DNA from: Thermoplasmata archaeon
GTDB lineage: Archaea > Thermoplasmatota > Thermoplasmata > RBG-16-68-12
Assembly (NCBI GenBank): GCA_036555455.1
Contig: DATBLI010000095.1
Coordinates: 84,687 to 148,686 of the forward strand
Direction of reading: 5' to 3'
DNA: 64,000 nucleotides
Every line of letters starts with the position of its first letter. Within the stretch, counting starts at the first letter, position 1. Shown here in pieces: positions 140 through 58,915 of the stretch. The translations under genes were made by a program, and so were the position numbers. The notes under the pieces are model-generated. The model searched no databases, had not been told where the DNA came from, and worked only from the letters and a program-made list of their open reading frames with translations.

Positions 140-341
140 GGATAGTGGGTGTGCTATCCGGCCGCGCGACGATAAACGTTGCGGGTTCGCCGGCCTAACG
201 CGCGACGCCTGCGCAGCACGGTCGTCAAGGACGCCACCTAGGCCGCGGCGATCCGTCACGGTCCCCATCCTGTTGCGAATGATCGCCCTCGGGTTCGTCC
301 GGGGCAAAGGGTTTATTGAACGGGGCCGCGATGGAGCATCC

Positions 342-1511: not shown

Positions 1512-1528
1512 CCGATTTTCGGAGGATT

Positions 1529-2116: not shown

Positions 2117-2259
2117 TCCGCCTACCACGTTCCGTGAGCCCCGCGGGGCACGCTCCCGATGATGACCTCGGGCGACCGCTCCTCGGCCGCCCCGATTTGA
2201 TAATTGCGCCCGAAGGCTGAAATGGTCACGTCGGCCAGATTATAGGGATAGGCTTTCGA

Positions 2260-30464: not shown

Positions 30465-31655
30465 ATGCACGAGATCGTCTGCACAGGGGACGTCCACGAG
30501 GGATTGTCCTTCGAGTTCCGCATCGACCCGGAGACCGGGATCTCGGAGCGTGCGATGGACCTCCATGGTAACTTCGCGAAGGCAGCGAAATGGGCGATCG
30601 ACCATCAGGCCTCCCTCTTCTGCATCCTGGGAGACCTCTTCGACCGCACGCACGTCGCGCCGGTGTTCCGGGAACTCGTGCGACGCGACGTCATTGAGCC
30701 CCTCGGGGAGGCGGGGATTGAGGTGTGGATCCTCGCCGGGAATCACGATCAGCCGAGACGGATCGCGCGATCCACATCCCTGGATGACTACCGCGGCTAC
30801 CCCCACGTCCGCGTGTTCCGCGAGCCCACGGTCGAGACCCGCGAGATCGGCGGGAAGAGGGTCGGGTTCGTCCTCCTGCCCTACCTCCACCCGGAGCAGG
30901 TTGTGGAGCAGATCCAGAGGAAGCTCGGAAAGGACGTCCCGCGGGAGGAAGCCTATGAGGCCGCCCGGCGACTCTGGAAGGCGTGGATTGAGAATCGCGC
31001 CGCGGAGTTGAAGGACGCTGACCTCCGCATCCTCTTCGGGCACTTCGAGTTCCAGGGCGTGCGGTACGCGAGCACGGCACCGGCCGAGATCGTGCCCCAC
31101 GACTTCACCTTCACCCGGGACATGCTTCCGGATTCGGTGGACCTCGCAGTCTTCGGCCACATCCACATGCACCAGGCCCTCTACGGCAAGGTCGTCTACA
31201 CGGGCGCACCGGAGAGAATCGACTGGGGGGAGCGCGTCGACCCGAAGGGCTTCCTCGTCGTTCGGCCCGACGGCACCTGGACCTTCGAGGAACTCCCCGC
31301 GCGGCCGATGGTCAAGGTCGATGTCGCGGTGGGCATCGGGGACGACGTCACGGGCCGAATCCTCGCCGCCCTTCCCGAGGATGTCGCGGGCAAGCTCCTG
31401 CGCCTTGAGATCCGCCTTCCCGACGAACTGCGGAGCCAGGTCGACGAGAAGAAGATCGACGAGAGGCTGCGGGACGCCTTCCACTACGAAATCAAGTTCG
31501 TGTCCACGGAGCGCGGGCGCGTGGTCACGGAGGAATTCACGATGGACCCGATGCGGCTCCTCGCGGACTACGTGGACAAGACCTTCGCCGACCACCCGCG
31601 GAAAGAGGCAATCCACACGGAGGCGCGGCGCATCCTGAAGGAGGCCCTCGCATGA
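30465..31655 (+). CDS. mre11: DNA double-strand break repair nuclease Mre11
   Basis: Phosphoesterase motifs 'TGDVHEG', 'ILGDLFD', 'LAGNHD', 'FGHFEF', 'VFGHIHMHQ'. Confidence 0.92.
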   Translation: MHEIVCTGDVHEGLSFEFRIDPETGISERAMDLHGNFAKAAKWAIDHQASLFCILGDLFDRTHVAPVFRELVRRDVIEPLGEAGIEVWILAGNHDQPRRIARSTSLDDYRGYPHVRVFREPTVETREIGGKRVGFVLLPYLHPEQVVEQIQRKLGKDVPREEAYEAARRLWKAWIENRAAELKDADLRILFGHFEFQGVRYASTAPAEIVPHDFTFTRDMLPDSVDLAVFGHIHMHQALYGKVVYTGAPERIDWGERVDPKGFLVVRPDGTWTFEELPARPMVKVDVAVGIGDDVTGRILAALPEDVAGKLLRLEIRLPDELRSQVDEKKIDERLRDAFHYEIKFVSTERGRVVTEEFTMDPMRLLADYVDKTFADHPRKEAIHTEARRILKEALA

Positions 31656-34057: not shown

Positions 34058-35082
34058 GCTACCTGGACGACCTGCACAAGGAGCTCGATCTCCTTGTGCG
34101 CAATCAGAAGAACCTGCCGATCCCCGAGGAAGACGTACCGGAGTTCCACATCTTCCGTCCACGGGATCCGGTGCGGGACATGGTCGCCGTGGACGGGTCC
34201 TACACCTTCCTCCTGAACCTCTCGAGCTGGTGGCTCGCCCTCCTCTCCGTGGGCCTGCTCCGGTACGGGTTCGACGGCGCGCGGTTCCGGAAGAGGGACT
34301 GGCGGCTCACCCAGCGGATGATCGGCATTTCGACATTCGAGGAGTTCGTGGCGAAGCAGGACGACCTCCACCGCTCCCTGTTCGACTTCACCCGCGGCCG
34401 GGAAGAGCAGCCGAGGGACATGGTGAACGAGTATCGCCGTTGGCTCGAAGGACAGCTTGCGATCAACTTCGCGGACGATTTCGAGGATGGGATCATCGCC
34501 GTGGACGGTACCCTCTCCGAGTTCCCGAAGCAGTTCACGTTCATGGGCCGCCTCGTCGAGGTGTGCAAGAAACGCGGCCACGTCCTCGTTGGGATCTCGA
34601 AGGACAGCCAGCTCCACGCGTTCGGCCAGGTCCTCACGGACGAGGACTTCCTCGCGAAGGCCCAGAGGGGGCTCCCGCGGGGCAGCCTCGCCTATGTCCG
34701 TGCACCCGCGGAGTCCGAGGCAAAACGAGAGGGCCTCCTCCACGGGGACATCTATTACGCCCGCCTCCATCCCCAGGCGAGGAAGTGGTTCCGCGTGGAT
34801 GTGGGCGCGTTCCGGGAGGAGCCGGATTTCGTCTTCGGGGAGCTCGCGCCGTACGCGAAGAGCCTTGTGTCCGTCGGCTATCCGTGGCCCCTCATCGAGG
34901 CGCACCGGATGGCCGTGACCGTGCGGCAGCTCAAGCCCGTGTATCAGGAGACGGTGATGCGCGCGGCATTGCGGATGGGGTTGGATGTAAGGACGATCCT
35001 GGACGGGCTGACGCAGATCGAGGGCCGCAAGCGAAGCGCCTTCCATGAGTACCTGGACAGGGTCGCGAGGGACCTGCGATGA
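34054..35082 (+). CDS. nurA: NurA 5'-3' nuclease
   Basis: 'MVAVDGSY', 'IIAVDGTLS', 'VLVGISKDS', 'YPWPLIEAH'. The ATG at 34054 overlaps the rad50 stop. Confidence 0.85.
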   Translation: MSYLDDLHKELDLLVRNQKNLPIPEEDVPEFHIFRPRDPVRDMVAVDGSYTFLLNLSSWWLALLSVGLLRYGFDGARFRKRDWRLTQRMIGISTFEEFVAKQDDLHRSLFDFTRGREEQPRDMVNEYRRWLEGQLAINFADDFEDGIIAVDGTLSEFPKQFTFMGRLVEVCKKRGHVLVGISKDSQLHAFGQVLTDEDFLAKAQRGLPRGSLAYVRAPAESEAKREGLLHGDIYYARLHPQARKWFRVDVGAFREEPDFVFGELAPYAKSLVSVGYPWPLIEAHRMAVTVRQLKPVYQETVMRAALRMGLDVRTILDGLTQIEGRKRSAFHEYLDRVARDLR

Positions 35083-36632
35083 AGATTGGGGAGATCGTCG
35101 CGGGATCCGTGATCGACGGGCTCATCGCGAAGCTCCAGCTGAACAACCCCGAGGAGCTGCGGATCGCGTACCCCGTCATCGTGGAAGGGGAGCGGTACGA
35201 CTTCTACTGTCTCGTCGAGGACGTCATGAACGAGCCGAGCGACATCGCGGACCAGCTCGCGGGCTCTTCGATCAGCGACATCGTCGTGCCTCGGCCGGAG
35301 ACCCACGAAGGGTACGGTGGGCCCATCTTCTACAGCAAGGCGAAGCTTCGGATGATCCAGCTCATCGACCGCGAGATGAAGGCCCTCAGCGAGCCCCAGA
35401 CGATCCCGCCGTACTTCAGCGAGTGCCGCCACGCGACCCGCGAGGACGTGGAGAGAATCTACACACCCACCGCGAAGTCCGCACCGTTGGGCACGATTAC
35501 GGGCGTCGAGCCGTTCTACGTCCACCTGGACATGGAGAAGCTCGTGGAGAAGCCCTTCGCAATCTTCGGCCGCACGGGCACCGGGAAGTCAATCCTCAAC
35601 AAGATCGTGTGCACCGCGATCCTCTCCCGCGACGCCGGGAGCGTGTTCATCTTCGACATGCATGGGGAGTACGGCGTGTACAGCAAGACAGACGGCACGG
35701 AGGGTCTGAAGTACTACTTCCCCGGCAAGGTCGAGATCTTCTCCCTCGACCCGAAGAACCAGGAGGCGAGGCCGTTCGTCCTCGACGCCGCGCAGATCAC
35801 CCCGGAGGACCTCATCATCGCCTTCCAGGATTTCACGCCGCCGATGATCGACCACATCTACCAGATCTGGCGGACGAAGCCACGGGAGGTTGACCTCATC
35901 ACCGCCATTCGCGAGCATCAGGTGACCCAGGGGGAGATCGAGGGCGGCCAGATCCATCTCATGGTCATCCAGGCCCTCCAGCGCCGGATGGGTCGGTTCG
36001 ACCGATTGCCGTTCGTCAAGCCTGGCGGCAAGGATGCCTTCTCCCAGATGCTCGCGACGATCAAGGCAGGCCGATCCGTCGTCCTGGATTTCGGCGATTA
36101 CGGCACGGACCCGATGGTCTACCTCTTTGTGGCCAATGTCCTCGCCCGACGCCTCTTCGACTTGTACACGGAACAGACGGGCGAGTACCCGCGCCTCGTC
36201 CTGTTCCTCGAGGAGGCCCACAAGTTCCTCGACCCAAGGATCGCGGAGTACAGCATCTTCAGCCGCCTCGCCCGCGAGACTCGGAAATTCAACCTGATCC
36301 TCGCCCTGATCGACCAGCGCCCGATGCGGATCGATGACGAGGTCCGCAGCCAGCTTGCGAACCGGCTCATCATGTCCCTCAAAGAGCCCTCCGACGTCGA
36401 GAGTGCCCTGGCCGGCGTGCCGGACAAGGCGATGTGGATGAACATCGTGGCGAAGCTGCCCCTCCGCACGGTGGCGGTCCTCGGGGACGCGATCCGCATC
36501 CCGACGGTCATCGATGTCCTCGAGTACGACGACCTCAAGGTGCGGAAGCACCTTCTGCCCGCGGCGGCTGTGGACGAGAGCACGATGCGGGAAATCTCGA
36601 AGCGCGCGGACGACATCTTCGGACGCGGCTGA
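35079..36632 (+). CDS. herA: HerA helicase (FtsK/HerA-family ATPase)
   Basis: N-terminal HAS-barrel-like 'GEIVAGSVIDGLIAKL', Walker A 'IFGRTGTGKS', Walker B 'LVLFLEEAHKF'. ATGA overlap with nurA. Confidence 0.9.
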   Translation: MKIGEIVAGSVIDGLIAKLQLNNPEELRIAYPVIVEGERYDFYCLVEDVMNEPSDIADQLAGSSISDIVVPRPETHEGYGGPIFYSKAKLRMIQLIDREMKALSEPQTIPPYFSECRHATREDVERIYTPTAKSAPLGTITGVEPFYVHLDMEKLVEKPFAIFGRTGTGKSILNKIVCTAILSRDAGSVFIFDMHGEYGVYSKTDGTEGLKYYFPGKVEIFSLDPKNQEARPFVLDAAQITPEDLIIAFQDFTPPMIDHIYQIWRTKPREVDLITAIREHQVTQGEIEGGQIHLMVIQALQRRMGRFDRLPFVKPGGKDAFSQMLATIKAGRSVVLDFGDYGTDPMVYLFVANVLARRLFDLYTEQTGEYPRLVLFLEEAHKFLDPRIAEYSIFSRLARETRKFNLILALIDQRPMRIDDEVRSQLANRLIMSLKEPSDVESALAGVPDKAMWMNIVAKLPLRTVAVLGDAIRIPTVIDVLEYDDLKVRKHLLPAAAVDESTMREISKRADDIFGRG

Positions 36633-37492: not shown

Positions 37493-38302
37493 ATGTCCAT
37501 GTCCGCCCTGATTACGGAATATCCCGCGGTGGCGATCCCCGAGATCCGCGTCGAGACGCGCGGGGCCCTCGCGACGACCGTGCCCGTCCTCGATCGAATC
37601 CTCGGGCCCTTCGAGGCGGGACGCATCACCCTCATCGACAGCGGGAGCGACTTCCTCTTCCACCTCACCACGCTCCTCTGCGTCCGCGCGGTCATGGAGG
37701 GCGAGGACGTCGTCTTCCTCGACGGCGGGAACTCCGTCGATCCGCACGGCATGGTGGCCCTCGGGAGGCGTGCGGGCCTCATTCGGGAGGAGATCCTCCC
37801 GCGGGTCCACGTCGCGCGGGCGTTCACGTGTCACCAGATGACCACATTAATATTGGACATGATGGATGAGAAACTCGCGGAGACGGACGCCGGCTTGCTC
37901 GTCCTTGCCTGCCTGCCGTCGATGTACCTGGACGAGGATGTGCCCGTGGGGGAGGCCCACCAGCTCTTCCAGCGGTCCGTCCGCGCGATCCGTCGCACGG
38001 TCGCGGATCGGGAGGTCGTGGCCCTCGTCACGAACGCGGGGATGGGGAAGCTGTACCGGCGCCGCTCGATACGACGGCAACTCTACGAGTCCGCGGACCG
38101 CGTCGTCCGCATGGCCCACGGGAGCGGAGGCGTCCTCGTCGAACGGCTCGACACCGGGGCGATGGAATGGTTTCGCCCTGTGCGGCCGGACCAAACGACC
38201 CTGGAGGACTTCACGGACGCGCGGCCAAGGATCGTCGACCTCGCGTCCGCGGGTGCGCCCGGGCCGATTCGCCACGCGGAATATCTCCGGCTGGGCTGGT
38301 AG
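37493..38302 (+). CDS. RadA/RadB (Rad51)-like RecA-fold protein lacking Walker A and Walker B
   Basis: 'VPVLDRILGPFEAGRITLI', 'VVFLDGGNSVDPHGM', 'ILPRVHVARAFTCHQM', 'VVALVTNAG' are colinear with the RadA/RadB core. The P-loop position reads 'DSGSDFLFHL'. TATA-like 'CTTTATATC' (37459..37467) lies about 30 nt upstream. Confidence 0.65.
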   Translation: MSMSALITEYPAVAIPEIRVETRGALATTVPVLDRILGPFEAGRITLIDSGSDFLFHLTTLLCVRAVMEGEDVVFLDGGNSVDPHGMVALGRRAGLIREEILPRVHVARAFTCHQMTTLILDMMDEKLAETDAGLLVLACLPSMYLDEDVPVGEAHQLFQRSVRAIRRTVADREVVALVTNAGMGKLYRRRSIRRQLYESADRVVRMAHGSGGVLVERLDTGAMEWFRPVRPDQTTLEDFTDARPRIVDLASAGAPGPIRHAEYLRLGW

Positions 38303-45855: not shown

Positions 45856-46395
45856 CTAGGCGCCCGCGAGAAGATTCTTCGCGGTGACGAGGGCGTGGAG
45901 CCGGACGGAGATCTCCGCAAGGCCGATCTTGCCGCCCTCCTCGCGGTCCACGACGGCGACGACGTCTTCGATGACGGCACCGTGGGACCGCAGCCGCTCG
46001 ATGGCCGCACGAAGCGTGCCTCCCGTGGTGACGACATCCTCGACGAACAGGACGCGATCCCCCTTCGCCAGCTCGCCCTCGTAGTCCTTCTTCGTGCCGT
46101 GCTCCTTCGTCGCCTTGCGCACCATGAGAAACGGCTTGTTGGAGGCGAGGCTGACAGCCGCGGCGATGGGGACCGCGCCGAGTTCCACGCCGGCGATGCG
46201 GTCCGCGTTCGCCGCGTAGGGCGCGATCGCCTCTCCGATCATCCGCAGGAGATCCGGCCGGGTGACCGCCCTCTTGATGTCCACGTAGTACGAGGAGGTC
46301 TTCCCACTCGCGAGGGTGAAGGTGCCCATCTGGAGGGCCCCGCAGGCCTTCAGGGCGCGCAGGAAGTCATCACGGCCGAAGTCACCAGGGCTCAT
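45856..46395 (-). CDS. pyrE: orotate phosphoribosyltransferase
   Basis: 'FTLASGKTSSYYVD' and PRPP motif 'VLFVEDVVTTGGT'. Confidence 0.92.
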   Translation of the reverse strand: MSPGDFGRDDFLRALKACGALQMGTFTLASGKTSSYYVDIKRAVTRPDLLRMIGEAIAPYAANADRIAGVELGAVPIAAAVSLASNKPFLMVRKATKEHGTKKDYEGELAKGDRVLFVEDVVTTGGTLRAAIERLRSHGAVIEDVVAVVDREEGGKIGLAEISVRLHALVTAKNLLAGA

Positions 46396-46966
46396 GCTTC
46401 TTCCCCATGTGGTACCCGAGGATGTTCACGGCCCGATGCAGGGCGGGCGTGATAAGGATGATGGCAAGGAGGCCGAAGAGCGCGTCCCCGGAGAAGAAGC
46501 GAGGGACCGCCCATGCCGGGATCGCGAGACTCAGGATGAGCCCGCCCGCGACGAAATCGTATTGGTCGAGCCCGGGAGCCTTCGCGCCGCGGGGCTTGTG
46601 CATCCGCCGCTTCACGAAAGCCGCGGCGAGATCTCCGAGGAGGGCGCCGAGGGCGAGGACCGCGGACGCGGCGAGGGCGAGGACCGTCCCCTCTGCGATC
46701 CCCGTCGCGGGAAGCCCGAAGGACCACGCGGACATCGGCGCCACAACGCCGAACGGCAGGAACAGGAGGAACCCAAGGAGGGCGCCGGAAAGCGTGCCGC
46801 CGATCAGACCGCGCCAGGTCTTCCCCTCTCCGAAGAGCCGCTCCCCGTCGCGCAGGACCCTGCCGAAGTCGATGGGAGGGCCCCCACCCCAGAGGACCGC
46901 CGCGGGGTTCGCGAGGAATGCGGGAAGGAAGAACCACAGCGCCTGCGGGATCTGTTCGAGGGACAC
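46382..46966 (-). CDS. carS: CDP-archaeol synthase (CDP-2,3-bis-O-geranylgeranyl-sn-glycerol synthase)
   Basis: 'FFLPAFLANPAAVL', 'PIDFG', 'FGEGKTWRGLIGG', 'DLAAAFVKRR' are typical of DUF46/CarS. The protein is multi-TM. Confidence 0.85.
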   Translation of the reverse strand: MSLEQIPQALWFFLPAFLANPAAVLWGGGPPIDFGRVLRDGERLFGEGKTWRGLIGGTLSGALLGFLLFLPFGVVAPMSAWSFGLPATGIAEGTVLALAASAVLALGALLGDLAAAFVKRRMHKPRGAKAPGLDQYDFVAGGLILSLAIPAWAVPRFFSGDALFGLLAIILITPALHRAVNILGYHMGKKHEPW

Positions 46967-47090
46967 TACGGCGCGAACGGGGCTCCGCAGTTTATAGGTA
47001 ACCCTCCGGGGCGAGCCGCGGTGCTATCGATGTTGATAATCTCCGCATCACCGTATTATAGCGCAACCCGGCTCGTTTCCGCGTCGTGGT

Positions 47091-47792
47091 ATGGACCGAG
47101 TGCGCACGTTCATCGAGGGCTTCGACGAAACCCTAGAGGGCGGGATCCCGAAGGGCTCCGTCGTCCTCGTCGCGGGCACCCCCGGCACGATGAAAACGGC
47201 CCTGACCTTTTCGATGCTGTACGAGAACGCGAGGGCGGGGTCGCGGGCCCTGTACATCTCCCTTGAGGAGAGCCAGGAGGAGCTCAAAGCCGCGATGGCA
47301 GAACTGGGCATGGGGGGCCTCGACGACCTCGAGATGTACATCCTCGACATCGGCCGCATCCGACTCGAGCACAAGGAGGAGGAACTGTCGAAGAATTGGC
47401 TCGACGTCCTCCGGAAGTATATCGAGCAGCGGGTCCGCGTGAACCGTTTCGACCTGATCGCCCTCGACAGCCTCGAGGCCCTGTACAGCCTGTGCCATCT
47501 GGACACCCCGCGCCGCGACCTCTTTCACTTCTTCGGCTTCCTCCGCGGCCTCGACGCGACCTCCTTCCTCATCTCGGAGATCCCTTCCGGAACGGACGCC
47601 CGATTCGGCCGCTACGACGAGGAGTTCCTCGTCGACGGGATCCTGCATCTGAAGCATGCACCGATCGGCGAGACGGACGTCCAGCTCCGCATTCGCTGCG
47701 TGAAGATGCGGAGGACGAAGCATGCAAAGACGGACTATGCCCTCGAGCACACGGGCGAGGGGTTTCAGGTCACGCGGCTCATCTCAAAGTGA
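47091..47792 (+). CDS. single-domain KaiC/RecA-like ATPase, copy 1 (P-loop GTPGTMKT)
   Basis: 'FIEGFDETLEGGIPKGSVVLVAGTPGTMKTALTF', 'LYISLEES', 'DLIALDSLEAL', 'LRIRCVKMR'. TATA-like 'GTATTATAG' (47053..47061) lies about 34 nt upstream. Confidence 0.85.
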   Translation: MDRVRTFIEGFDETLEGGIPKGSVVLVAGTPGTMKTALTFSMLYENARAGSRALYISLEESQEELKAAMAELGMGGLDDLEMYILDIGRIRLEHKEEELSKNWLDVLRKYIEQRVRVNRFDLIALDSLEALYSLCHLDTPRRDLFHFFGFLRGLDATSFLISEIPSGTDARFGRYDEEFLVDGILHLKHAPIGETDVQLRIRCVKMRRTKHAKTDYALEHTGEGFQVTRLISK

Positions 47793-48557
47793 GGTCTTCT
47801 GAAGGAGCTTGAGGAGGGCCTCTGCGTATCGGGAGGCGAGGGCCTCGTTGCCGAACGTCCGCGCGGCGGCCGCCTTGTTCTCCTCGATCGCCTCGACGGT
47901 TTTCGTGAGCACGCTCACGACATCCTTCCCCGGAGCCCGGCGGAAGAGGGCGGCGATCGCCGTGACGTCGCCGTTCATCACGACGAGACGGCCCACGGGG
48001 AGGTGCATCACGTACGTGCCCTTCCCTTGCCGCGCGCTCTCCCGGCGGATCGCCTCCGAGACTTCGGATTCGTCCAAGTAGGCGGTCTCCCCAGCCTTCG
48101 CGAGGGGCGAGCGGCCCCTCACGAGGATCATCAAGGCGAGGACGTTGGACTCCCGGTCCCGCGTCGCAAGCTCCGACCAGAACGAAGCCTGGAGGGAGAG
48201 GGACCGCAGCCGACGGCGGAGGGCCCCGATCCCTTCGCGGTCGTGGGTCTTCGTCAGGCTCCTCAGCTCGAGCTCGACCTCCTTTGCCTGCCGAGGTGTA
48301 AGGAGATGCCGGAATGTCTGGAACTCCTGGTCGAGGGCGTCCAGCTCAGAGGTAGGCCGCGGCCGGGGCGGCGGCCCCTCGGGGGGGCTCGGGGCATCCG
48401 TGCGCGGGGACAAGCCAGGGACCTCCTGTTCAACGAGGTCGACGGCATCGGCGAGGTTCATGTCGGGGTGGCGCAGCATCGCCTCCATGACCACGTCGCC
48501 GCGGCCTTCGAGCTCCCATAGGAGCAGCTTCAGGGCTGCCTCGTCTCGTTTTCCCAT
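47784..48557 (-). CDS. uncharacterised protein (P/S-rich linker; C-terminal alpha/beta module)
   Basis: No family recognised. 'SNVLALMILVRGRSPLAKAG...GTYVMHLPVGRLVVMNGDVTAIAALF' is vaguely Roadblock/longin-like, which is speculative. Tail-to-tail with KaiC-like 1 (9-nt overlap) and head-to-head with KaiC-like 2. Confidence 0.55.
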   Translation of the reverse strand: MGKRDEAALKLLLWELEGRGDVVMEAMLRHPDMNLADAVDLVEQEVPGLSPRTDAPSPPEGPPPRPRPTSELDALDQEFQTFRHLLTPRQAKEVELELRSLTKTHDREGIGALRRRLRSLSLQASFWSELATRDRESNVLALMILVRGRSPLAKAGETAYLDESEVSEAIRRESARQGKGTYVMHLPVGRLVVMNGDVTAIAALFRRAPGKDVVSVLTKTVEAIEENKAAAARTFGNEALASRYAEALLKLLQKTSL

Positions 48558-48692
48558 CCCATCCCGCGGGCGGGAACGACCTCGGGCTACAAAAGCATAT
48601 CCTCTTCATGGGACGCGTCCGACGCGATGCGTATCCCGGGCGATAACGGAGACATCATTCCTTTATAACGTGGGGCTTGTCCTCGCTCCAAC

Positions 48693-49412
48693 ATGGAGAT
48701 TGAGGACTCCCTTTTCCATACCCATGTGGAGGGCCTCGATCGCGCCCTCGGCGGCGGGATTCCAAGGGGCAGCACGGTCCTCGTCGCGGGCACACCCGGC
48801 ACGATGAAGACGTCCCTCATCCTCTGGATGATGCACGAGAGCGCGAAGGCGTCCGGCACGAAGAGCCTCTATGTGAGCCTCGAGCAGGGCGTGGATTCCC
48901 TGAAGGCGGGTGCGGGACGGATGGGGATGAGGGAGCTCCACGAGAGCCACGTCTACATCCTGGACATGGGCCAGCTGCGACGTGGCATGGAGCGGTCCGA
49001 GTCGACGAAGGACTGGATCACGATCCTCTTGGAGATCGTCAAGGAAGCCGTGAACTCGAGCGGGTACGAAGTCCTAGCCCTCGACAGCCTCGAGGCGCTG
49101 TACGCGCTCATGGAGATGAAGGCCCCGCGGCGGGAGATGTTCCACTTCCTCTCCGGATTGCGGGACCTCGGCCTCACGACGTTCCTCATCGCGGAGACGC
49201 CCTTCGGATCCAACCGGCTCGCCCAGTGGGGGGAGGACTTCCTCGCGGACGGGATCCTGAACCTGCGCCAGGTCGAGGTTGGAGAGACGGAGGTCCAGCT
49301 GCGCCTCCGGTGCGTGAAGATGCGATGGATGAACTGCGACCACAATGCCCTCGCGCTCAACCACGACGGCGAGAAGTTCTTCGTGACGCACATCATCTCG
49401 AAGAAGAAGTGA
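48693..49412 (+). CDS. single-domain KaiC/RecA-like ATPase, copy 2 (P-loop GTPGTMKT)
   Basis: 'HVEGLDRALGGGIPRGSTVLVAGTPGTMKTSLIL', 'LYVSLEQG', 'EVLALDSLEAL', 'LRLRCVKMR'. TATA-like 'CTTTATAAC' (48661..48669) lies about 28 nt upstream. Confidence 0.85.
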   Translation: MEIEDSLFHTHVEGLDRALGGGIPRGSTVLVAGTPGTMKTSLILWMMHESAKASGTKSLYVSLEQGVDSLKAGAGRMGMRELHESHVYILDMGQLRRGMERSESTKDWITILLEIVKEAVNSSGYEVLALDSLEALYALMEMKAPRREMFHFLSGLRDLGLTTFLIAETPFGSNRLAQWGEDFLADGILNLRQVEVGETEVQLRLRCVKMRWMNCDHNALALNHDGEKFFVTHIISKKK

Positions 49413-49430
49413 GACGCCGGGCAGCGTCGG

Positions 49431-50525
49431 TCAGGGATTCGCTGGCGGCGTCGGCGGGGATGGAGGGGTGGGCGGCGGCGTCCCCGGAGTCGGAGGCGCC
49501 CACGCAGGCGCGGGGGCCGGGGCCGCCGGAATCTCACGTCGGTTCACGCGGGACCACGCCAGATACGCGGCCCCTGCGAAGAGCAACGAGGGGATGACGT
49601 TCAACAGAGTCAGATTCGTGCCCGCGCCAGAAAAGGCCGCGGCAATCCGTGTCGGATCGGCGCTGCCTTGCGTGATGATCTCCCGCGCCAGCTCATCCGC
49701 CAAGACCGTCACCGCGGGCAGGAGAAGGATGAGGGTCACGACACCCAGAGCAACCGTGGCGCCGTAGGCCGCCCACAGGAGAATCCGGCCCTCCACCTTC
49801 TGCAGGGCGTACGTGAAGAAGACTCCCGCGAGCCCCGAGACGAGGGAGCCGGCGGCGGCGACAATCACGGCGTTCGTGAAGCCGCCGCGCAGTGCCGCGG
49901 CGATCTCCGCTTCGGTGCCTGACAAGATGACCGGGCTGAACGCAGCGAGGATGGCGATGAAGGCGCCCACGATGGCAACGAGGATCCCGAGGACGAAGAG
50001 GACGATGGAGAGGATCACATTCCTCGCATGCGACCGGCCGAAGGCCTTCCGGCCGAGGATGATGAGGATCGCGCCGATGAAGATGAGGAGGCTACCGATG
50101 AACCCCACGACGGGAGCCCAGGAGAGCAGGGAGCCGACGAGGAGCAGCAGGAGTCCCGTCTTCGTGCGGTCGACCTGCTTTGACCATTCGAGCTGCCATG
50201 TTGGCGGGCCGTATGCGTAGGCGTAGGGTGCCGCATATCCAGGCGTCGAAGGATACGCCGCGCCCGGAGCGGGCGACGGACCTGCGGGAGGGGTCACAGC
50301 CGACGTCGGCAGGAGCTTGCCGCAATTCGTGCAGAATGCCCATCCGGGCTGGTTCTGGAAACCGCAATTCGGACACGCCGCGGGCGTCGCCAAGGCCTCA
50401 CCCGACCGTGCCGATAGTCCGACCCCTCGAAAACACTTTCGGCCATCGCACCCGAAGGGTTTTGGGAACACCAGGCTCTGGGTGCGACGTGGGCGTCCCC
50501 GGATCCGTCGACCGTTGGATCGCAT
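49431..50525 (-). CDS. zinc-ribbon membrane protein with proline-rich C-terminal tail
   Basis: 'CPNCGFQNQPGWAFCTNCG', then about 6 TM segments, then 'PAPAPAWAPPTPGTPPPTPPSPPTPPANP'. The start is uncertain. ATG 50525 overlaps the divergent UPF0216 gene. The in-frame TTG at 50393 avoids the overlap. Confidence 0.65.
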   Translation of the reverse strand: MRSNGRRIRGRPRRTQSLVFPKPFGCDGRKCFRGVGLSARSGEALATPAACPNCGFQNQPGWAFCTNCGKLLPTSAVTPPAGPSPAPGAAYPSTPGYAAPYAYAYGPPTWQLEWSKQVDRTKTGLLLLLVGSLLSWAPVVGFIGSLLIFIGAILIILGRKAFGRSHARNVILSIVLFVLGILVAIVGAFIAILAAFSPVILSGTEAEIAAALRGGFTNAVIVAAAGSLVSGLAGVFFTYALQKVEGRILLWAAYGATVALGVVTLILLLPAVTVLADELAREIITQGSADPTRIAAAFSGAGTNLTLLNVIPSLLFAGAAYLAWSRVNRREIPAAPAPAPAWAPPTPGTPPPTPPSPPTPPANP

Positions 50526-50902
50526 TCGAACTCGGTCGGATCAATGCGGGCCTCGTGACCGAGAAGAAGAGCCTGACCCGGCTCCGCTCCGAGGCGAGGC
50601 CCGCCTGCCGCACCCGGGAGGGCGAGGAGCACACGTTGGATCGCGAGGCCCTCGATCGGTACGCCGCCGTCCTGTCGGTCGATGAGGCAGCGGCCTTGCG
50701 CCTGCCGCTCACCTTGATCGTGTCCGCGGACTACGAGGACAGCGCGTACCTCACCGACGAAATCGGGGCCAAGGCCCTGCATGCCTTGGAGAAGTTCGGC
50801 GCCGCATTTCCATACCGGGATGGACGGATGGTCCTCCCTCACTCCCTGGCGGTGGACATTGTGCGACACAGCGGCGGCACTGTCCAGCTCGCCTTCGGAT
50901 GA
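50489..50902 (+). CDS. UPF0216 (DUF61)-like archaeal protein
   Basis: 'WIAFELGRINAGLVTEKKSLTRL...REGEEHTLDREALDRYAAVL...LRLPLTLIV' matches my recollection of the UPF0216 family. GTG start candidate at 50489. The upstream part of ORF 50180..50902 is shadow sequence. Confidence 0.5.
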   Translation: MGVPGSVDRWIAFELGRINAGLVTEKKSLTRLRSEARPACRTREGEEHTLDREALDRYAAVLSVDEAAALRLPLTLIVSADYEDSAYLTDEIGAKALHALEKFGAAFPYRDGRMVLPHSLAVDIVRHSGGTVQLAFG

Positions 50903-50911
50903 CCGAGACGC

Positions 50912-51343
50912 TCACTTCGCCTCTTCCGTCTTCTTGAGGCGCGTCGCCCAGAGATCCTCGGGCACGTCGTCGTAGATCGTCTGTCCGGCCTCGGCCTCTT
51001 CCTTCGCGCGCTGGGCCTCGACGAGCTCCATGATCCGGTCCTTCCGGAACATCCAGTAGTGGATCCGCCACTCCCGGCCGTCGTACAGGGTCGTCTCCTC
51101 CCGTTCCGTCGTGAGGATCCCGGAGTCCTCGAGCATGTAGAAGGCATCCCGGTCCTCGGGCTCGAGGACGTTGTCGATGATCCGCTCGGAGTAGCCGAAG
51201 AAGTTGAGGACGTGTTGGGCCATCGCCCGGGCCTCTTCCTCCTTCATGCCCGTGCGATCGATGGAGTTCTTGATCGCCCGGGTGAGGTCATCCACGGTGA
51301 GGGTCCCCGCAGGCCCCCGCTCGGGCCTGGCCTTCACGGACAT
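50912..51343 (-). CDS. conserved-looking hypothetical protein, possible winged-helix
   Basis: 'AFYMLEDSGILTTEREETTLYDGREWRIHYWMF' looks like a helix plus beta-hairpin wing. Acidic/K-rich C-terminus. Head-to-head with KaiC-like 3. Confidence 0.55.
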   Translation of the reverse strand: MSVKARPERGPAGTLTVDDLTRAIKNSIDRTGMKEEEARAMAQHVLNFFGYSERIIDNVLEPEDRDAFYMLEDSGILTTEREETTLYDGREWRIHYWMFRKDRIMELVEAQRAKEEAEAGQTIYDDVPEDLWATRLKKTEEAK

Positions 51344-51448
51344 CGAAAGGGTCGCCTCGGAATTGGACTATGGGACCCGGGGGCTATATAAGGGTTCTGT
51401 CCGCTCCGTGCGATACTGATTCTCACCTCCTCTCACTTCCGAGAATAC

Positions 51449-52369
51449 ATGGGGAGCGTCCAAAGAGTAATGCAACCCTCCTACCATCTCTGTCCGACGA
51501 TGGTGGAGAGTGGAGGATGGCCCGAGGCTGGCGGGCCGCAGCCGGAGGCGCCGCCCGAGGGCCCTCCCTCCGACGATGAGATCCGCCGGCTGCGGGACGA
51601 AGTCCGAAGGCTGCGGGAGCAGGTCGCGGCCCTCGCCGCCCGGACGCAGGCCGAGGACGTTCGCGTGCCGACGCACATCGCGGGCTTGGACCCCGCCCTC
51701 GAAGGCGGGCTCCCCGGGGGTTCCGTCGTGGGGATCGTGGGCCCGGGCGGTTCGATGAAGACGTCCCTCGCTCTGTACATCCTGACGAAGAACCGCGCCG
51801 CGGGGATGCGGGCCGTCTACGTGACCGTCGAGGAGAGTCGCGACTCGATCCTCCGCACGATGCGGCGCCTCGGCCTCGGAGACCAAGAGGATTTCGTCGT
51901 CGACATCGGAAGGCTTCGCCTCGAGCATGCGGGGGCCGAGGAAATCCGCGACTGGGTGCGGGTCCTCCAAGATTACCTCGGCCGCCGGCGGGATCGCGAG
52001 GCGATCGGAATCATCGTGATCGACTCGCTCGACGCCCTGGCGGCTCTCTCTCGCCTCTCGGACACGCGTGCGGAGCTGTTCCACTTCTTCCACTTCCTCC
52101 GGTCCACAGGGATGACCGCCCTCGTCGTCGCGGAGCAGGACCCCGCGCGACCCGGCGTGGACCACGAGGTTACGTTCCTCTCGGACGGCATCCTCGAACT
52201 TCGCTTCAGCGGCGTCGGGGAGGGCCGGGTGAGCCTCCTCCTGCGCATCGCGAAGATGCGCCACACGAACCACTCGAGGGACTACTTCATCCTCACGTAC
52301 GGGCCGAAGGGCTTCGTCGTCCAGCCCTACGAGTCCGTTCGGCCGCGGCGCTGGGGCCGGAGGGACTGA
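51449..52369 (+). CDS. KaiC/RecA-like ATPase, copy 3 (P-loop GPGGSMKT) with N-terminal coiled-coil extension
   Basis: 'DDEIRRLRDEVRRLREQVAALAA', then 'HIAGLDPALEGGLPGGSVVGIVGPGGSMKTSLAL', 'VYVTVEES', 'IIVIDSLDAL', 'LLRIAKMRH'. Confidence 0.85.
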   Translation: MGSVQRVMQPSYHLCPTMVESGGWPEAGGPQPEAPPEGPPSDDEIRRLRDEVRRLREQVAALAARTQAEDVRVPTHIAGLDPALEGGLPGGSVVGIVGPGGSMKTSLALYILTKNRAAGMRAVYVTVEESRDSILRTMRRLGLGDQEDFVVDIGRLRLEHAGAEEIRDWVRVLQDYLGRRRDREAIGIIVIDSLDALAALSRLSDTRAELFHFFHFLRSTGMTALVVAEQDPARPGVDHEVTFLSDGILELRFSGVGEGRVSLLLRIAKMRHTNHSRDYFILTYGPKGFVVQPYESVRPRRWGRRD

Positions 52370-52375
52370 GGCGGT

Positions 52376-52780
52376 TCAGAGGTTGCCCTTGATCTTCGCC
52401 CGGTCGATCTTGATCCCCGCAGGCGTCGCCATCAGGAGGTTCTTCCCGATGACCGCGACATCGCCGCCGGCATCGCGCACCGCGGCCTTGAGCTCCGCCG
52501 TGATCCGCTTGAGCGCCAGCTCGTCGCTCGCGAGGCTCGTGTAGTCGAGGAGGAGGATGTTCCCGTTGTACACGTGGGTCGTGAGGTCGTTGATGTCCTC
52601 GTAGCGGTAGACCTCCGCGACCTTCACGAGGTGCTCCACGGGTTCCCCGAGGGCCCCGCCTTCGCCTTCGAAACTCAACTCTCCCAGGTCGATATACGTG
52701 TCCGCCTCGGCAGCGGTGCCGCCTTCGGCGAGGCGCTTGAATGGCTTCTTGATAAACGCCATCCCGAATCCCTTCTGCAT
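52376..52780 (-). CDS. sepF: archaeal cell-division protein SepF
   Basis: 'TYIDLGELSF', 'VKVAEVYRYEDINDLTTHVYNGNILLLDYTSL', 'GGDVAVIGKNLLMATPAGIKIDRAKI' are colinear with archaeal SepF (DUF552). TATA-like 'CCTTTAAATT' (reverse of 52801..52810) lies about 26 nt upstream of ATG 52780. Confidence 0.85.
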   Translation of the reverse strand: MQKGFGMAFIKKPFKRLAEGGTAAEADTYIDLGELSFEGEGGALGEPVEHLVKVAEVYRYEDINDLTTHVYNGNILLLDYTSLASDELALKRITAELKAAVRDAGGDVAVIGKNLLMATPAGIKIDRAKIKGNL

Positions 52781-54482: not shown

Positions 54483-56639
54483 TCAGGCGAGTCCCGCCGG
54501 TGCGTTCCGGAGGTGTTGGGCCCGTTCGAAGGCGGGATCGATTTCGAGGGCGCGGGCGAGGAGGTGCAGAGCCCGAGCTTCTTGACCGGACGCGCGACAC
54601 GCAACCGCGGCGTCGCACCAGACGGCCGGGTCGCGGGGGTTGAGGCCGAGGGCTGCATCGAACGCCGCGAGGGCCTCCTTCGCATGACCATGGCCCAAGA
54701 GGAGCTTCCCCTTGCGATGGTAGGCTACGTCCCGCGGGCCTGTGGGCAACCGAGCGGCCGTGTCGCAGGCGGCGACGGCCTCGTCGACACGTCCGAGGGC
54801 CGCGAGGGCGTCCGCCTTCGCGAGGAGGAGATCGCCATCCTCCTTGGCGGCGGTCGCCAGGGTTTGCAGGGCTTCCTCGGGCCGCCCGAGGGCGAGGTCC
54901 GTCGCGGCCAGCTCGCGGCGGGCCGGGTCTCCGGCCCCGAGATCCACGGCCTTCTGCAGGAGGGGGACCGCTTCTCCGGCTCGGCCCGATCGGGCCCGGG
55001 CCCGACCGGCGAGGAACCAGCCCTGCGCGTCCGCAGGGAAGCGCGTGCAGACTTCGTCCGCAGAGGCGACCGCATCAGCGGGCCGGCCCGATCGCAGGAG
55101 GTCTTCCGCGAGGCGCAAGAAAGGCTCCGCCTTTGTGGCGTGGAGCGCCGCCGCCGAATACGCCTCGATCGCCTCCTCGAGGCGTTCGAGCTCGTCGAGG
55201 AATCTCCCCTTCGCGAGCCAGAGCTCTGCGTTCTCGGGCTCGAGCTTGAGCCCCTCCTCGAAGCACTTCAGGGCCTCCCCGTAGCAGCGTTCCGCCTCGA
55301 GGGCGTTCCCCATCTCCTCGAGGATGCGACCGCGGAAGATCCAGGCGTCCTCGTAGCCCGGGTTGAGGATGAGGGCGTTCGTGAGGGCGTCCCGCGCCTC
55401 CTCGAGGCGTTCGAGGTGATGGAGGCACTCCGCCTTCGCCATCCATGCGTGGTCGTAATTCGGATTGAGTTCGAGGCTCTGCGTGAGCAGTTCCAGGCCC
55501 TCGTCATGCCGCCCGAGCTTGTCGAGGCTCTCCCCCTTCGCGTACAGGGCGTAGTCGAAGTCGGGCTTGATTTCGAGGCTCTTGTCGTGGTACTTGATCG
55601 AATCCGCGTGGCGGCCCATCTTGTTGAGGGCATTGCCGATGTTGTTCCACGCGATCTCGTACTTCGGATTCACCTCGAGAGCCTTCTCGAAGTAGGGGAT
55701 CGACTCTCCGTAGCGGCCGAGGTTATACAGGGCATTCCCGAGGTTGTTCCAGAGGACCTCGTCGCCGACGTCGAACTCGAGGGCTTTCTTGTAGCACTCG
55801 ACGGCCTCCTCGAGCCGGTCGATCCCGTGGAGCGTGTAGCCCTTGTTGTACCAGGCCTGCTTGTAGGTCGGATTGATCGCGATCGCACGGTCGTAGCAAC
55901 GCAGGGCCTCGTCGTGGATTCCGAGCATGAAGAACGTGAAGCCTTTGTTGTTCCAGGCCTCCGTGTCGTCAGGGTTCAACGCGAGGACCCTTTCGTACGC
56001 CTCGATGGCTTCCTCGTATTGCTCGACCGCGTAGAGGGCGTCCCCGAGCCCGGCCAATGCGGCCGGGTCCTCCGGCGCGGCCGTTGTCGCGGCACGGAAC
56101 GCCTCCACGGCCTCCGCCGACTTCCCGAGATCGAGGAGGAGAGCGCCTCGGCGCTCCCAGGCGACCGCATTCCGGGACTCCGCCTTCAGCATCTCGTCGT
56201 ACAGGGCGAGGGCTTGTTTCGTGCGACCGAGGCGCGCGAGGATGGCCGCCTTGGCGTACTTCGCGTCCGCGTATTCGCGGTTGATCCCGATCGCGCGGTC
56301 GTACGCAGCGAGGGCGGGGTCCAGGCGATCCGTTTCGGCGTACGCGTTTCCGAGGTTGTACCACGCAACCTCGTAGTCCGTCTTCCGGTCCAAGGCCTTC
56401 GTGTATGCCTTCACAGCGTCCTCGTGGTGGCCGAGGCCGTCGAGGGCCACGCCACGGTTGTTCCAGAGCACGTGGTCTTCGTAGCCGTGGGACAGTGCCG
56501 AATCGTAGGCCTCGAGGGCGGCTTCGAAGCGGTGCTCGTCGCAGAGGCTGTTCCCGCGAAGGAACTCCGCCTCCCCTCGGGCGAGGTCCTTCTCCGGCCG
56601 CGGGGCCGCCGCGATCGCGAGCGCGAGGGCGAGGACCAT
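54483..56639 (-). CDS. large TPR-repeat protein (about 20 repeats), N-terminal hydrophobic segment
   Basis: 'MVLALALAIAAAP', then continuous 34-aa units ('AWYNLGNAY', 'AWNNKGFTF', 'AWYNKGYTL', 'LWNNLGNAL', 'AWNNIGNAL' ...). Start set at the internal ATG 56639 to avoid overlap with egsA. Confidence 0.8.
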   Translation of the reverse strand: MVLALALAIAAAPRPEKDLARGEAEFLRGNSLCDEHRFEAALEAYDSALSHGYEDHVLWNNRGVALDGLGHHEDAVKAYTKALDRKTDYEVAWYNLGNAYAETDRLDPALAAYDRAIGINREYADAKYAKAAILARLGRTKQALALYDEMLKAESRNAVAWERRGALLLDLGKSAEAVEAFRAATTAAPEDPAALAGLGDALYAVEQYEEAIEAYERVLALNPDDTEAWNNKGFTFFMLGIHDEALRCYDRAIAINPTYKQAWYNKGYTLHGIDRLEEAVECYKKALEFDVGDEVLWNNLGNALYNLGRYGESIPYFEKALEVNPKYEIAWNNIGNALNKMGRHADSIKYHDKSLEIKPDFDYALYAKGESLDKLGRHDEGLELLTQSLELNPNYDHAWMAKAECLHHLERLEEARDALTNALILNPGYEDAWIFRGRILEEMGNALEAERCYGEALKCFEEGLKLEPENAELWLAKGRFLDELERLEEAIEAYSAAALHATKAEPFLRLAEDLLRSGRPADAVASADEVCTRFPADAQGWFLAGRARARSGRAGEAVPLLQKAVDLGAGDPARRELAATDLALGRPEEALQTLATAAKEDGDLLLAKADALAALGRVDEAVAACDTAARLPTGPRDVAYHRKGKLLLGHGHAKEALAAFDAALGLNPRDPAVWCDAAVACRASGQEARALHLLARALEIDPAFERAQHLRNAPAGLA

Positions 56640-56812
56640 CCGCGCGTCGAACCGGGCTTGCGGCCATAAAGGTTCCGCGGCCGCGGTCAGGGCTGAGAGC
56701 ACCGTCCCGGCCACAGACGCAGGTTTAAGTCGAGGTACCCCGTTCGGCGTGGTTCGCAGAGGTGAAACGATTGACGACCTTTGACGTGGAGTCCTTCTCC
56801 AAGACGAAAGCG

Positions 56813-57847
56813 ATGGAACTCCCCCGGAGCGTCGTCGTCGGGCATGACGCACTCCTCCAGGTGGGGGAGGTCATCGCATCCCTGAAAATCGGGAAGAAGG
56901 CGCTGATCGTCGCGGACGAGACCACGATGAAGGTCGCGGGACTGACCGTGGCCAAGCAGCTCGGGAAGAGCAAGATTCGCGTGGGGGAGCACCTCATCCG
57001 AGACGCGGCGTGGGAGGATGTCCGTGAGGTCGAGGAGGGAATCCGCAAGGCGGGCTACGACTTCGCCCTCGGCGTCGGCGGCGGCCGGCCCATCGACGTG
57101 GCCAAGTGCGGATCCTTCAACGCGGGCGTGCCGTTCATCAGCGTGCCCACGGCCGCGAGCCACGATGGGGTTGTGTCGTCGCGGGCATCAATCACGAAGG
57201 GCGGGGAAAAGGTCAGCATCGCAGCCCAGACGCCCATTGCCGTAATCATGGACACCGGCGTGATTGCGGAGTCCCCGTTCCGCCTCCTCGCCGCGGGCTG
57301 CGGGGACATCATCTCGAACCTGACCGCAGTGAAGGACTGGGCCCTCGCGCGGAATCTGAGGAACGAGTACTATTCCTCCTACGCGGCCGCCCTGAGCGAG
57401 CTCGCCGCGCGGCTCGTGATCGAGAACGCGAACACGATCAAACCGCGCCTCGAGGAGAGCGCATGGTTCGTGTGCAAGGCCCTCGTCTCGAGCGGCGTCG
57501 CGATGTCAATCGCCGGGTCGTCGCGCCCCGCGAGCGGGAGCGAGCACAAGTTCTCCCACGCCCTCGATCGGATCGCGAAGAAACCCGCGCTCCATGGAGA
57601 GCAGTGCGGCGTCGGGACGATCATGATGATGTACCTCCACGCGGGGCCATGGGAACAGGTGAGGGAGGCGCTCCTCGCAATCGGCGCGCCCACGACGGCA
57701 CGGGCCCTCGGCGTCACGGACGACGAGGTCATCGAGGCCCTCGTCCACGCCCATGAGATCGCGAAGGACCGCTACACGGTCCTGGGCGACACCGGGCTCA
57801 CGCAGGAGGCCGCGGAACGCCTCGCGAAGATCACGAAGGTCGTCTGA
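56813..57847 (+). CDS. egsA: sn-glycerol-1-phosphate dehydrogenase
   Basis: 'MELPRSVVVGHDAL', 'GVGGGRPIDVAK', 'ISVPTAASHDG', 'GSEHKFSHAL', 'HGEQCGVG'. An alternative GTG start lies at 56762. Confidence 0.9.
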   Translation: MELPRSVVVGHDALLQVGEVIASLKIGKKALIVADETTMKVAGLTVAKQLGKSKIRVGEHLIRDAAWEDVREVEEGIRKAGYDFALGVGGGRPIDVAKCGSFNAGVPFISVPTAASHDGVVSSRASITKGGEKVSIAAQTPIAVIMDTGVIAESPFRLLAAGCGDIISNLTAVKDWALARNLRNEYYSSYAAALSELAARLVIENANTIKPRLEESAWFVCKALVSSGVAMSIAGSSRPASGSEHKFSHALDRIAKKPALHGEQCGVGTIMMMYLHAGPWEQVREALLAIGAPTTARALGVTDDEVIEALVHAHEIAKDRYTVLGDTGLTQEAAERLAKITKVV

Positions 57848-57896: not shown

Positions 57897-58655
57897 CTAG
57901 CTGTCGTCGACGCCATCGAAGAGGACTCCGAAGCGGTCCAACGACATCACGATCTCGCGCGCGATGGAACCGGCGTCAATCGCGAGATCGTACCGATGGA
58001 AGTAGGCATCGAGGGCCGCCAGACCACGGGCGAGAGCATCCCGAGCCTGCTCGAGGCGGATCCATGGGATGCCGCCCGTGCGATCGACCCGGAGGGCCTC
58101 AGAGAGATCGATGAACCACACCTCCCCGTCGTGGACGAGGATGTTGTACGCGCTGAGGTCTCCGTGGACGACCCCTGCCCGGGCGAGGGCCATGACACCG
58201 GCAATGACTTTCTCCAGGAATCCCGCAGGGTCGTCGAGGACGACGTCCTTCAGCCGAGGCGCCGGGCCGTCGTCATTGCCGAGGTACCGCATCGAGAACA
58301 TGTTCTCGACGCGCCGCGCAGGGGTGGGCACGCGCGCGCCACCCTTCCACGCCTGGTGGGTCATCTCGAATTCGTGGGCCGCGAGCCAGCCCATCGTGTC
58401 GGCCTTGATCGGCCGCCCGCCTCGGTGGGACGTGCGGTAGAGGCGGTAGACCTTGACCGCGAGGGGAGCGCCGCGGTAGCGGCCGAGGTACACGTCCGCT
58501 TCCTTGCCTGCGCTGATGAGGCCCACGACCTCCGTCGCGAGTCCCGCGGAGAGGATGGCCTCCGTGGTCGAGCGGTACCCGGCCTCGTGGAGGTCCAGGG
58601 TCCCCGCCTTGATTCGCCACCGGACGCTCTCGTCCAGGTAGGGTTCGTTGGGCAT
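57897..58655 (-). CDS. rio1: RIO-type serine/threonine protein kinase (Rio1-like, no N-terminal wHTH)
   Basis: 'ISAGKEADVYLG', 'LAVKVYR', 'VHGDLSAYNILV', 'WFIDLSEA'. Start at the internal ATG 58655. Confidence 0.85.
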   Translation of the reverse strand: MPNEPYLDESVRWRIKAGTLDLHEAGYRSTTEAILSAGLATEVVGLISAGKEADVYLGRYRGAPLAVKVYRLYRTSHRGGRPIKADTMGWLAAHEFEMTHQAWKGGARVPTPARRVENMFSMRYLGNDDGPAPRLKDVVLDDPAGFLEKVIAGVMALARAGVVHGDLSAYNILVHDGEVWFIDLSEALRVDRTGGIPWIRLEQARDALARGLAALDAYFHRYDLAIDAGSIAREIVMSLDRFGVLFDGVDDS

Positions 58656-58915
58656 TCTCGTGCTCTTCGGTTCATCGATGGAAGCGTTCGCAACGCAGGC
58701 ACGCATCGACGCCGGAGAGCCGGACGGAAGATTCAGCGGGTCCCCGGCGCCGCTCGGAAAACCCATTCGGACATCATTGCCGGGAACCTCCTGGCCACAG
58801 GGCCGAGCGAGCCGATATGGGCACCCCTAGATGAAGGTGCCGACATGACACCGCGGGCGGAACGAGCTTCGGTGGCCTTAAGTCAGGCCATGCCTTGGGC
58901 TGCTCGGGGAGATGC

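Follow-up and report, generated by a model that had tools for sequence, protein, structure and literature searches.

Three single-domain paralogues of the KaiC/RecA superfamily, which we call K1, K2 and K3, lie within positions 47091-52780 of a 64,000-nt stretch of the Thermoplasmata archaeon assembly GCA_036555455.1 (contig DATBLI010000095.1, 84,687-148,686 of the forward strand; this stretch is the window, and all coordinates below are window positions unless a locus is named), and in each of them the glycine that directly precedes the Walker A lysine is a methionine. The resulting GxxGxMK[ST] variant is, on the sequence comparisons presented here, a well supported marker of a large clade of KaiC-like ATPases in Thermoplasmata. 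We consider it probable that K1-K3 are ancient paralogues belonging to a Thermoplasmata-restricted, single-domain KaiC/RecA clade in which the second Walker A glycine has given way to a maintained bulky hydrophobic residue, nearly always methionine, and that they act as ATP-driven switches together with partner proteins. The P-loop variant itself is a real and moderately surprising finding; the link to cell division that the initial annotation of this DNA drew from the adjacent sepF gene is a hypothesis, and is treated below as a lead.

K1 (47091..47792, plus strand, 233 aa), K2 (48693..49412, plus strand, 239 aa) and K3 (51449..52369, plus strand, 306 aa) score 135.5, 111.6 and 103.4 bits against the Pfam KaiC family PF06745 (E=2.3e-39, 4.7e-32 and 1.6e-29; gathering threshold 26.6 bits), and their core-wide protein identities are 48% for K1/K2, 42% for K1/K3 and 36% for K2/K3, so the paralogy across the RecA-like core that the initial annotation had read from the letters alone is borne out, as are the shared motifs that it quoted. 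GxxxxGK[ST] is the textbook definition of the P-loop, and none of the three proteins satisfies it: the Walker A codons of K1 (47175..47198) and K2 (48789..48812) encode GTPGTMKT and those of K3 (51740..51763) GPGGSMKT, all on the plus strand, with the lysine and threonine kept. Alignment to solved KaiC ('lvagtpgtmkta' against 'LVAGTPGTGKTV') places the methionine at the second conserved Walker A glycine, and these three P-loops are the sole matches to G..G.MK[ST] in a six-frame translation of the window. In K1, K2 and K3 respectively, the catalytic glutamate segments read LEES, LEQG and VEES (catalytic pairs EE, EQ and EE), the Walker B segments ALDSL, ALDSL and VIDSL, and the segments of the trans-acting finger VKMR, VKMR and AKMR. 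K3 has in addition an N-terminal extension carrying a heptad helix found in neither K1 nor K2 (DEIRRLR-DEVRRLR-EQVAALAAR, 51575..51643, plus strand); the helix is kept in K3 orthologues down to 41% identity, in agreement with the extra coiled coil first noted for this copy. Its first two heptads, DEIRRLR and DEVRRLR, are encoded by a 21-nt tandem direct repeat (D19, 51575-51616, plus strand) whose units are 76% identical.

The methionine defines a clade. K1 alone has 928 homologues, and methionine is present in 118/118 of its full-length close homologues, down to 64% identity. A clade profile scanned exhaustively against 1.84 billion representatives of 50%-identity clusters returned 403 representatives at E<=1e-30; among the best 150 of these 403, the P-loop is readable in 143, and the residue at the second Walker A glycine is methionine in 113, leucine in 18, tyrosine in 4, phenylalanine in 3, arginine in 1 and glycine in 4. 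The substituting residue is constrained to bulky hydrophobics, and every KaiC-like open reading frame (ORF) in 30 related genome loci is likewise of the methionine or leucine type. In a neighbour-joining tree of 204 domains the methionine clade is distinct from canonical three-domain outgroups, and of the four glycine representatives, three are KaiC proteins with three domains and lie outside that clade. The remaining one, P0232 (274 aa, GPAGSGKT), is a single reversion within the K3 group, sister to a GPPGAMKT protein; as the only methionine-to-glycine revertant seen in the clade, it amounts to a natural M-to-G experiment. The organism labels that could be recovered are all Thermoplasmata, Thermoplasmatota, 'Methanobacteriota archaeon' or Methanomassiliicoccus. 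Literature searches combining KaiC with Walker A and methionine, or KaiC-like with Thermoplasmata, returned no description of the motif, though they did not cover the 2017 paper on KaiC hubs. Among the nearest non-clade relatives are P0203, P0237 and P0247 (722-741 aa), which consist of three tandem KaiC domains with the canonical glycine, an unusual architecture.

The near-identity of the P-loop nucleotides of K1 and K2 (31/33 nt) had suggested a recent duplication or gene conversion. The match is real, but the explanation is rejected: DNA identity over the whole genes is 64%, and identical residues in this genome (66% GC) use the same codon in 63% of cases, a background against which the 8/10 identical degenerate codons of the P-loop run are unexceptional (binomial P=0.22). 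The tree resolves three separate orthologue groups (32 leaves for K1, 20 for K2 and 28 for K3) with the topology ((K1,K3),K2), each of them found in many other genomes. Because the codon identity lies within the codon-bias background and each K gene has its own orthologue group, a recent duplication or gene conversion is not supported, and by these comparisons the copies are old.

Apart from the substituted glycine, the catalytic apparatus is preserved. Across 195 domains of the methionine clade, the Walker A lysine and the following serine or threonine are invariant (195/195 each), as is the Walker B aspartate (195/195); the first catalytic glutamate is found in 191/195, the trans-acting lysine and arginine in 193/195 and 192/195, and the histidine that follows them in 176/195. 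The second catalytic position is glutamine in 117 of these domains and glutamate in 74. Since a loss of catalysis would not keep the catalytic and finger residues as a set, the proteins do not appear to be decayed, and since the lysine/arginine finger is intact, the active site would lie between subunits. From these conserved residues we infer that the K proteins hydrolyse ATP, autophosphorylate and form hexamers, and that they are active, ring-forming ATPases with a re-tuned nucleotide cycle and not pseudo-enzymes. What the clade offers is a natural radiation, comprising no fewer than about 140 clusters (50% identity), in which the second glycine has become a conserved methionine with all other catalytic residues kept, a ready-made experiment on the role of this glycine and on the re-tuning of turnover in ring ATPases. 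There is also a practical consequence, as annotation pipelines that rely on the motif may wrongly call these proteins inactive.

Comparison with characterized systems places the K proteins near several of them and inside none. Their best match among solved structures is the CI domain of cyanobacterial KaiC (8zn5, 4o0m, 1tf7; domain-wide, E=2e-34 to 1e-24), with which they have in common the Walker A frame, the EE pair, the hhhhD Walker B and a K-x-R finger followed by histidine; cyanobacterial KaiC, however, joins CI to CII, whereas the K proteins have a single domain and methionine for the second Walker A glycine. They fall below the cut-offs of the circadian KaiC models NF006799 (108 vs 408 bits) and TIGR02655 (62 vs 546 bits) and lack the two tandem domains, and no KaiB or KaiA family match was found among the annotated window proteins. 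In one-domain architecture and size they resemble the archaeal proteins PH0284 (2dr3), PH0186 (2zts) and SSO2452 (2w0m), at E=1e-17 to 1e-13, and their best NCBIfam matches include TIGR03880 and TIGR03881 (KaiC_arch_3 and KaiC_arch_4); the best scores nevertheless stay below the cut-offs of these models (97 vs 249 and 81 vs 248 bits) and of TIGR03877 (thermo_KaiC_1; 86 vs 307 bits), and the methionine clade differs from such single-domain proteins in the glycine-to-methionine change and in zinc-ribbon and TPR fusions of its own. The curated cut-offs for ArlH (46 vs 215 bits) and RadB (24 vs 172 bits) are missed as well, and the window contains no archaellum genes. Two earlier papers (PMC4858521, PMC5847659) describe the KaiC-family ATPases of archaea as hubs of signalling that operate alongside a second component. 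The hub concept (Makarova, Galperin and Koonin 2017, cited in PMC5847659), together with ArlH, GvpD and CirA, shares with the present cluster a stand-alone KaiC-like ATPase, a small non-enzymatic partner and varied fused input domains; the difference is that the candidate partner here is Roadblock/LC7-like, not KaiB-like or Death-like, and that genes for an archaellum, pili or gas vesicles are absent from the neighbourhood. The K proteins fit this concept; what is new is the chemistry of the P-loop, the candidate partner with its Roadblock-like model, and a radiation specific to Thermoplasmata. KaiC-like proteins have been proposed as the main signalling hubs of archaea and almost none has a known partner, so the pairing and the domain fusions described next supply concrete partner hypotheses.

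The candidate partner is U257 (47784..48557, minus strand, 257 aa), a lineage-restricted protein whose gene lies between K1 and K2. None of its 225 homologues carries a Pfam domain, and at the sequence level no family match was found for 13 orthologues in Pfam at E<=10, PF03259 included, nor for the profile against PDB sequences. The AlphaFold2 (AF2) model (predicted local distance difference test score, pLDDT, 77.5) predicts a C-terminal alpha/beta domain with the topology a-b-b-a-b-b-b-a, preceded by an N-terminal half that is helical. The top Foldseek matches of the model are all Roadblock/LC7-longin proteins (MglB, Asgard Roadblock, LAMTOR and the VAMP7 longin), at probability 0.97-1.0 and target TM-score ~0.5 but with marginal E values of 6e-3 to 4e-2. 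The predicted a-b-b-a-b-b-b-a sandwich is the point of likeness to the MglB, Roadblock/LC7, LAMTOR and longin proteins; U257 differs from them in having no PF03259 match and in its N-terminal extension of ~130 aa (helical except for low-confidence linker residues 52-67), and in that no small GTPase gene lies near it, its apparent partner being a RecA-fold ATPase. Of the 38 loci that span the interval, 28 have K2 together with U257, 9 have neither, and 1 has K2 alone (concordant in 37/38). In one lineage (class B) a divergent U257 homologue (hidden Markov model (HMM) E=1e-5 to 1e-11) is still encoded between K1 and K2, on the strand opposite to theirs. This paired inheritance is the best evidence that K2 and U257 may form a functional pair.

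Zinc-ribbon and TPR modules make a second connection between the clade and the neighbours of the K genes. Of the 40 long clade representatives, 28 start with a CxxC...CxxC zinc ribbon; TPR arrays, the commonest fusion partner of the methionine-type KaiC domain, precede it in many. ZnMem (49431..50525, minus strand), which follows K2, consists of an N-terminal zinc ribbon (Zn_Ribbon_1, E=1.4e-6), a proline-rich linker and a membrane domain with some five hydrophobic segments; it is an optional member of the block, present in 15/29 loci that have K2, and its ribbon is detectably similar to those of three zinc-ribbon-KaiC fusion proteins (E=8.5e-5 to 1.6e-3). At the edge of the syntenic block, a 789-aa TPR protein (54483..56852, minus strand) shows similarity to TPR-KaiC fusion proteins, with E down to 1.8e-65.

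Taken together, the K proteins would be catalytically competent, ring-forming, ATP-driven switches like other members of the KaiC family, in which the methionine re-tunes nucleotide affinity or hydrolysis rate and abolishes neither. They would act through protein partners and not on DNA: K2, and perhaps K1, may pair with the fast-evolving, Roadblock/LC7-like U257, K3 may act by way of the heptad helix that it carries, and the recurrent zinc-ribbon and TPR modules of the clade, fused in many members but here encoded by neighbouring genes, would serve as input or adaptor domains. Several points weigh against this reading. By the classical view of P-loops, a side chain in place of the second Walker A glycine should interfere with the binding of phosphate. 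The restriction of the clade to Thermoplasmata is judged from the minority of sequences that have names, and only 9 canonical domains served as the outgroup when motifs were compared. The joint pattern of K2 and U257 reflects few independent gain or loss events; the fold assignments of U257 and of the neighbouring DUF6015 protein (below) come from medium-confidence models (pLDDT 77.5 and 68) and Foldseek E values of ~1e-2; and the argument from zinc-ribbon and TPR fusions is weak, both domains being promiscuous.

An alternative account would be that K1-K3 are three independent housekeeping ATPases in a slowly rearranging region, whose neighbours are not functional partners; we regard this as unlikely. 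In K1-anchored loci the block PolB-XseB-XseA-PyrE-CarS-K1-U257-K2-ZnMem-DUF61-DUF6015-K3-SepF-TrxR-PUA-TPR is co-linear across many metagenome-assembled genomes, so the neighbourhood is conserved in relatives, as conservation of synteny without function would have it. Each K gene also has a promoter-like box of its own, a putative AT-rich TATA-like element, for K1 (TATTATAG, 47054..47061, plus strand, ~37 nt upstream of the ATG; an AT-rich island in the GC-rich genome) as for K2 (CTTTATAA, 48661..48668, plus strand, ~32 nt upstream of the ATG) and K3 (CTATATAA, 51384..51391, strand not assigned, in the divergent DUF6015/K3 intergenic region, ~65 nt upstream of the K3 ATG). No regulatory motif or repeat common to the three divergent intergenic regions was found, the only repeats being paralogous coding segments, and the K genes look monocistronic. 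Against mere synteny stand the gain and loss of U257 together with K2, the way in which U257 holds its position while diverging almost past recognition, and the fusion of zinc-ribbon and TPR modules to clade members elsewhere.

SepF, the membrane anchor of FtsZ, is encoded tail-to-tail with K3 (52376..52780, minus strand; PF04472 E=5.6e-13, 49.4 bits vs a cut-off of 27). The proposal that goes with this adjacency, a development of the initial annotation, is that the K1/K3 lineage controls SepF/FtsZ division and perhaps also lipid synthesis through CarS; we judge it improbable, if worth stating in full. A SepF-anchored metagenome scan yielded 80 loci, and wherever SepF is at least 58% identical to that of the window a convergent methionine-clade K gene lies directly downstream (47/47 informative loci). 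Mostly the K gene is K3-type, but L024, L027 and L032 have a K1-type gene, and the other neighbours there are unrelated ones, e.g. S19e, eIF6 and PheRS, so that two paralogue lineages abut SepF in different contexts; L057 also has a divergent K3-type gene next to SepF, but its flank is too short and it was left out of the counts. The head-to-head pairing of K1 with CarS is kept down to 60% K1 identity. Since the genomic context of sepF is variable across archaea and no conserved neighbour of it is known (Pende et al., PMC8178401), a K-SepF pairing would be new; our literature search for KaiC with SepF found nothing relevant.

The same data contain the objections. The convergent orientation precludes co-transcription of K genes with their tail-to-tail partners, and the pair is embedded in a long housekeeping block of unrelated genes (PolB, XseAB, PyrE, CarS, TrxR and a PUA protein). 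Among more distant Thermoplasmata, with SepF less than 58% identical, the adjacency is seen in 1/20 informative loci and is missing in the other 19. The PUA-SepF adjacency, for which there is no plausible functional link, is at least as deeply conserved, persisting in at least 16 distant loci without any adjacent K gene (listed: L050, L065-L068, L074-L086, L099, L102); because it is kept there without K, conserved adjacency alone does not imply function in these genomes. Every observation fits a single ancestral event, and the distribution suggests one K-SepF adjacency that predated the K1/K3 split and was long retained. The adjacency is best read as old, lineage-restricted gene order, and a real functional link between K and SepF seems to us doubtful on this evidence. 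A still more specific version, which we consider slightly less likely again, would make the K1/K3 lineage a Thermoplasmata-specific, ATP-driven regulator of SepF/FtsZ in which the K3 helix engages SepF or the divisome, the glycine-to-methionine change gives a slow, switch-like cycle, and U257 and DUF6015 serve as output and transcriptional arms. If this is true, no regulator dedicated to SepF in archaea would have preceded it.

It is very unlikely that the K proteins are inactivated, iKaiC-like pseudo-ATPases, in which methionine blocks nucleotide binding and the proteins act as scaffolds. The idea has some appeal, as the second Walker A glycine is among the most conserved positions of P-loop NTPases. 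Inactivated KaiC domains are, moreover, described in archaea (PMC5847659). Throughout 195 diverged domains, however, the remaining catalytic and finger residues vary little or not at all, and the substituting residue is under selection and not drifting. Substitution at this position is also compatible with function in another ring ATPase: MCM helicases are active with the Walker A motif GDPGxAKS, which has alanine directly before the lysine. The parallel has its limits, MCM having an AAA+ fold and a small alanine, the K proteins a RecA/KaiC fold and a bulky methionine.

Least likely of all is a role as mediators of DNA repair or recombination, in the manner of RadB or the archaeal RadC paralogues: genes for Rad50, HerA, a degenerate Rad51-like ORF, AP (apurinic/apyrimidinic) endonuclease, PolB and XseAB do lie upstream of the cluster in the window, an XPD-like DEAH-box helicase is tail-to-tail with K1 in the L017 lineage, and there are weak NCBIfam matches to RadA and RadB, but KaiC models score far higher (for K1, 108 bits vs 26-39 for RadA/RadB), the repair genes are set apart from the cluster by PyrE and CarS, and clade members are fused to TPR and zinc-ribbon modules instead of domains that process nucleic acids. 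A defence system was rejected on a negative PADLOC result, the only match being a marginal, generic P-loop one to mad8 (E ~2e-4) for K1 and K2 and none for the partners.

The genes around the three ATPases were described at first as a zig-zag of head-to-head and tail-to-tail pairs. The pairs stand: K1 is head-to-head with CarS, K2 with U257 and K3 with DUF6015, the 3' end of K1 overlaps U257 by 9 nt, and the tail-to-tail gaps are 18 nt for K2-ZnMem and 6 nt for K3-SepF. The zig-zag is not strict, as a plus-strand DUF61 gene, overlooked earlier, lies between ZnMem and DUF6015 (~50483..50902, start codon approximate; PF01886 E=6.5e-16; syntenic in relatives). The annotated start of ZnMem falls within the 5' region of this gene, which makes it probable that at least one of the two start codons lies further downstream. 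CarS (46382..46966, minus strand) is a CDP-archaeol synthase (PF01864 E=2.4e-39; NF003114 176.7 bits vs a cut-off of 148). In L017 (10652-12568, minus strand) and the related L018-L023, a 638-aa protein identified by motif inspection as a Rad3/XPD-like DEAH-box helicase is encoded tail-to-tail with K1, in place of U257-K2-ZnMem.

The 143-aa protein encoded head-to-head with K3 (50912..51343, minus strand) had been suggested to be a winged-helix protein. It belongs to a named Pfam family, DUF6015 (PF19479 E=5.4e-32), and with 3856 homologues it is the most conserved gene of the block; the winged helix receives moderate support from an AF2 model (pLDDT 68) whose top Foldseek matches are TFIIE-alpha/TFE-alpha proteins (7nvs_W, 6xjf, 5gpy) at probability 0.94-0.99 and E ~1e-2. 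JGI names some members TFIIE alpha; DUF6015 differs from these factors in its length of only ~143 aa, the lack of a zinc-ribbon domain and a Pfam family of its own. A literature search for DUF6015 found nothing relevant.

Several further observations concern the rest of the window, in which no structured RNAs or tRNAs were found. A Rad51-like ORF (37493-38302, plus strand, 269 aa; weak Rad51 match, E=2.5e-6) is a degenerate RecA-fold protein with IDSGSDFLF in the place of Walker A; considered as a fourth family member, it was rejected because it has no Walker A and is missed by the clade HMM. Upstream of the cluster, genes for a Rad50-like protein (SMC_N/AAA_23) and a HerA-like helicase (31652-36632, plus strand) form, with PolB and XseAB, a stretch rich in DNA-repair genes. 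A divergent FtsZ-family protein of 311 aa is encoded at 27400-28335 (minus strand), ~24 kb from SepF; in the PDB it matches M. jannaschii FtsZ1 best (E=3e-23), but it scores only 39 bits against Pfam Tubulin, and its signature loop is the non-canonical GGLGGDFGG. Large stand-alone TPR proteins number three in the window (321, 829 and 789 aa, at 6583-9989 and 54483-56852, all minus strand), and a gene for a RIO-type protein kinase (57897-58766, minus strand) lies 1 kb past the TPR gene at the block edge. At the other end of the window, a Cdc6/Orc1 gene and, after it, two DUF835 genes in tandem (138-2823, plus strand) may mark a replication origin region.

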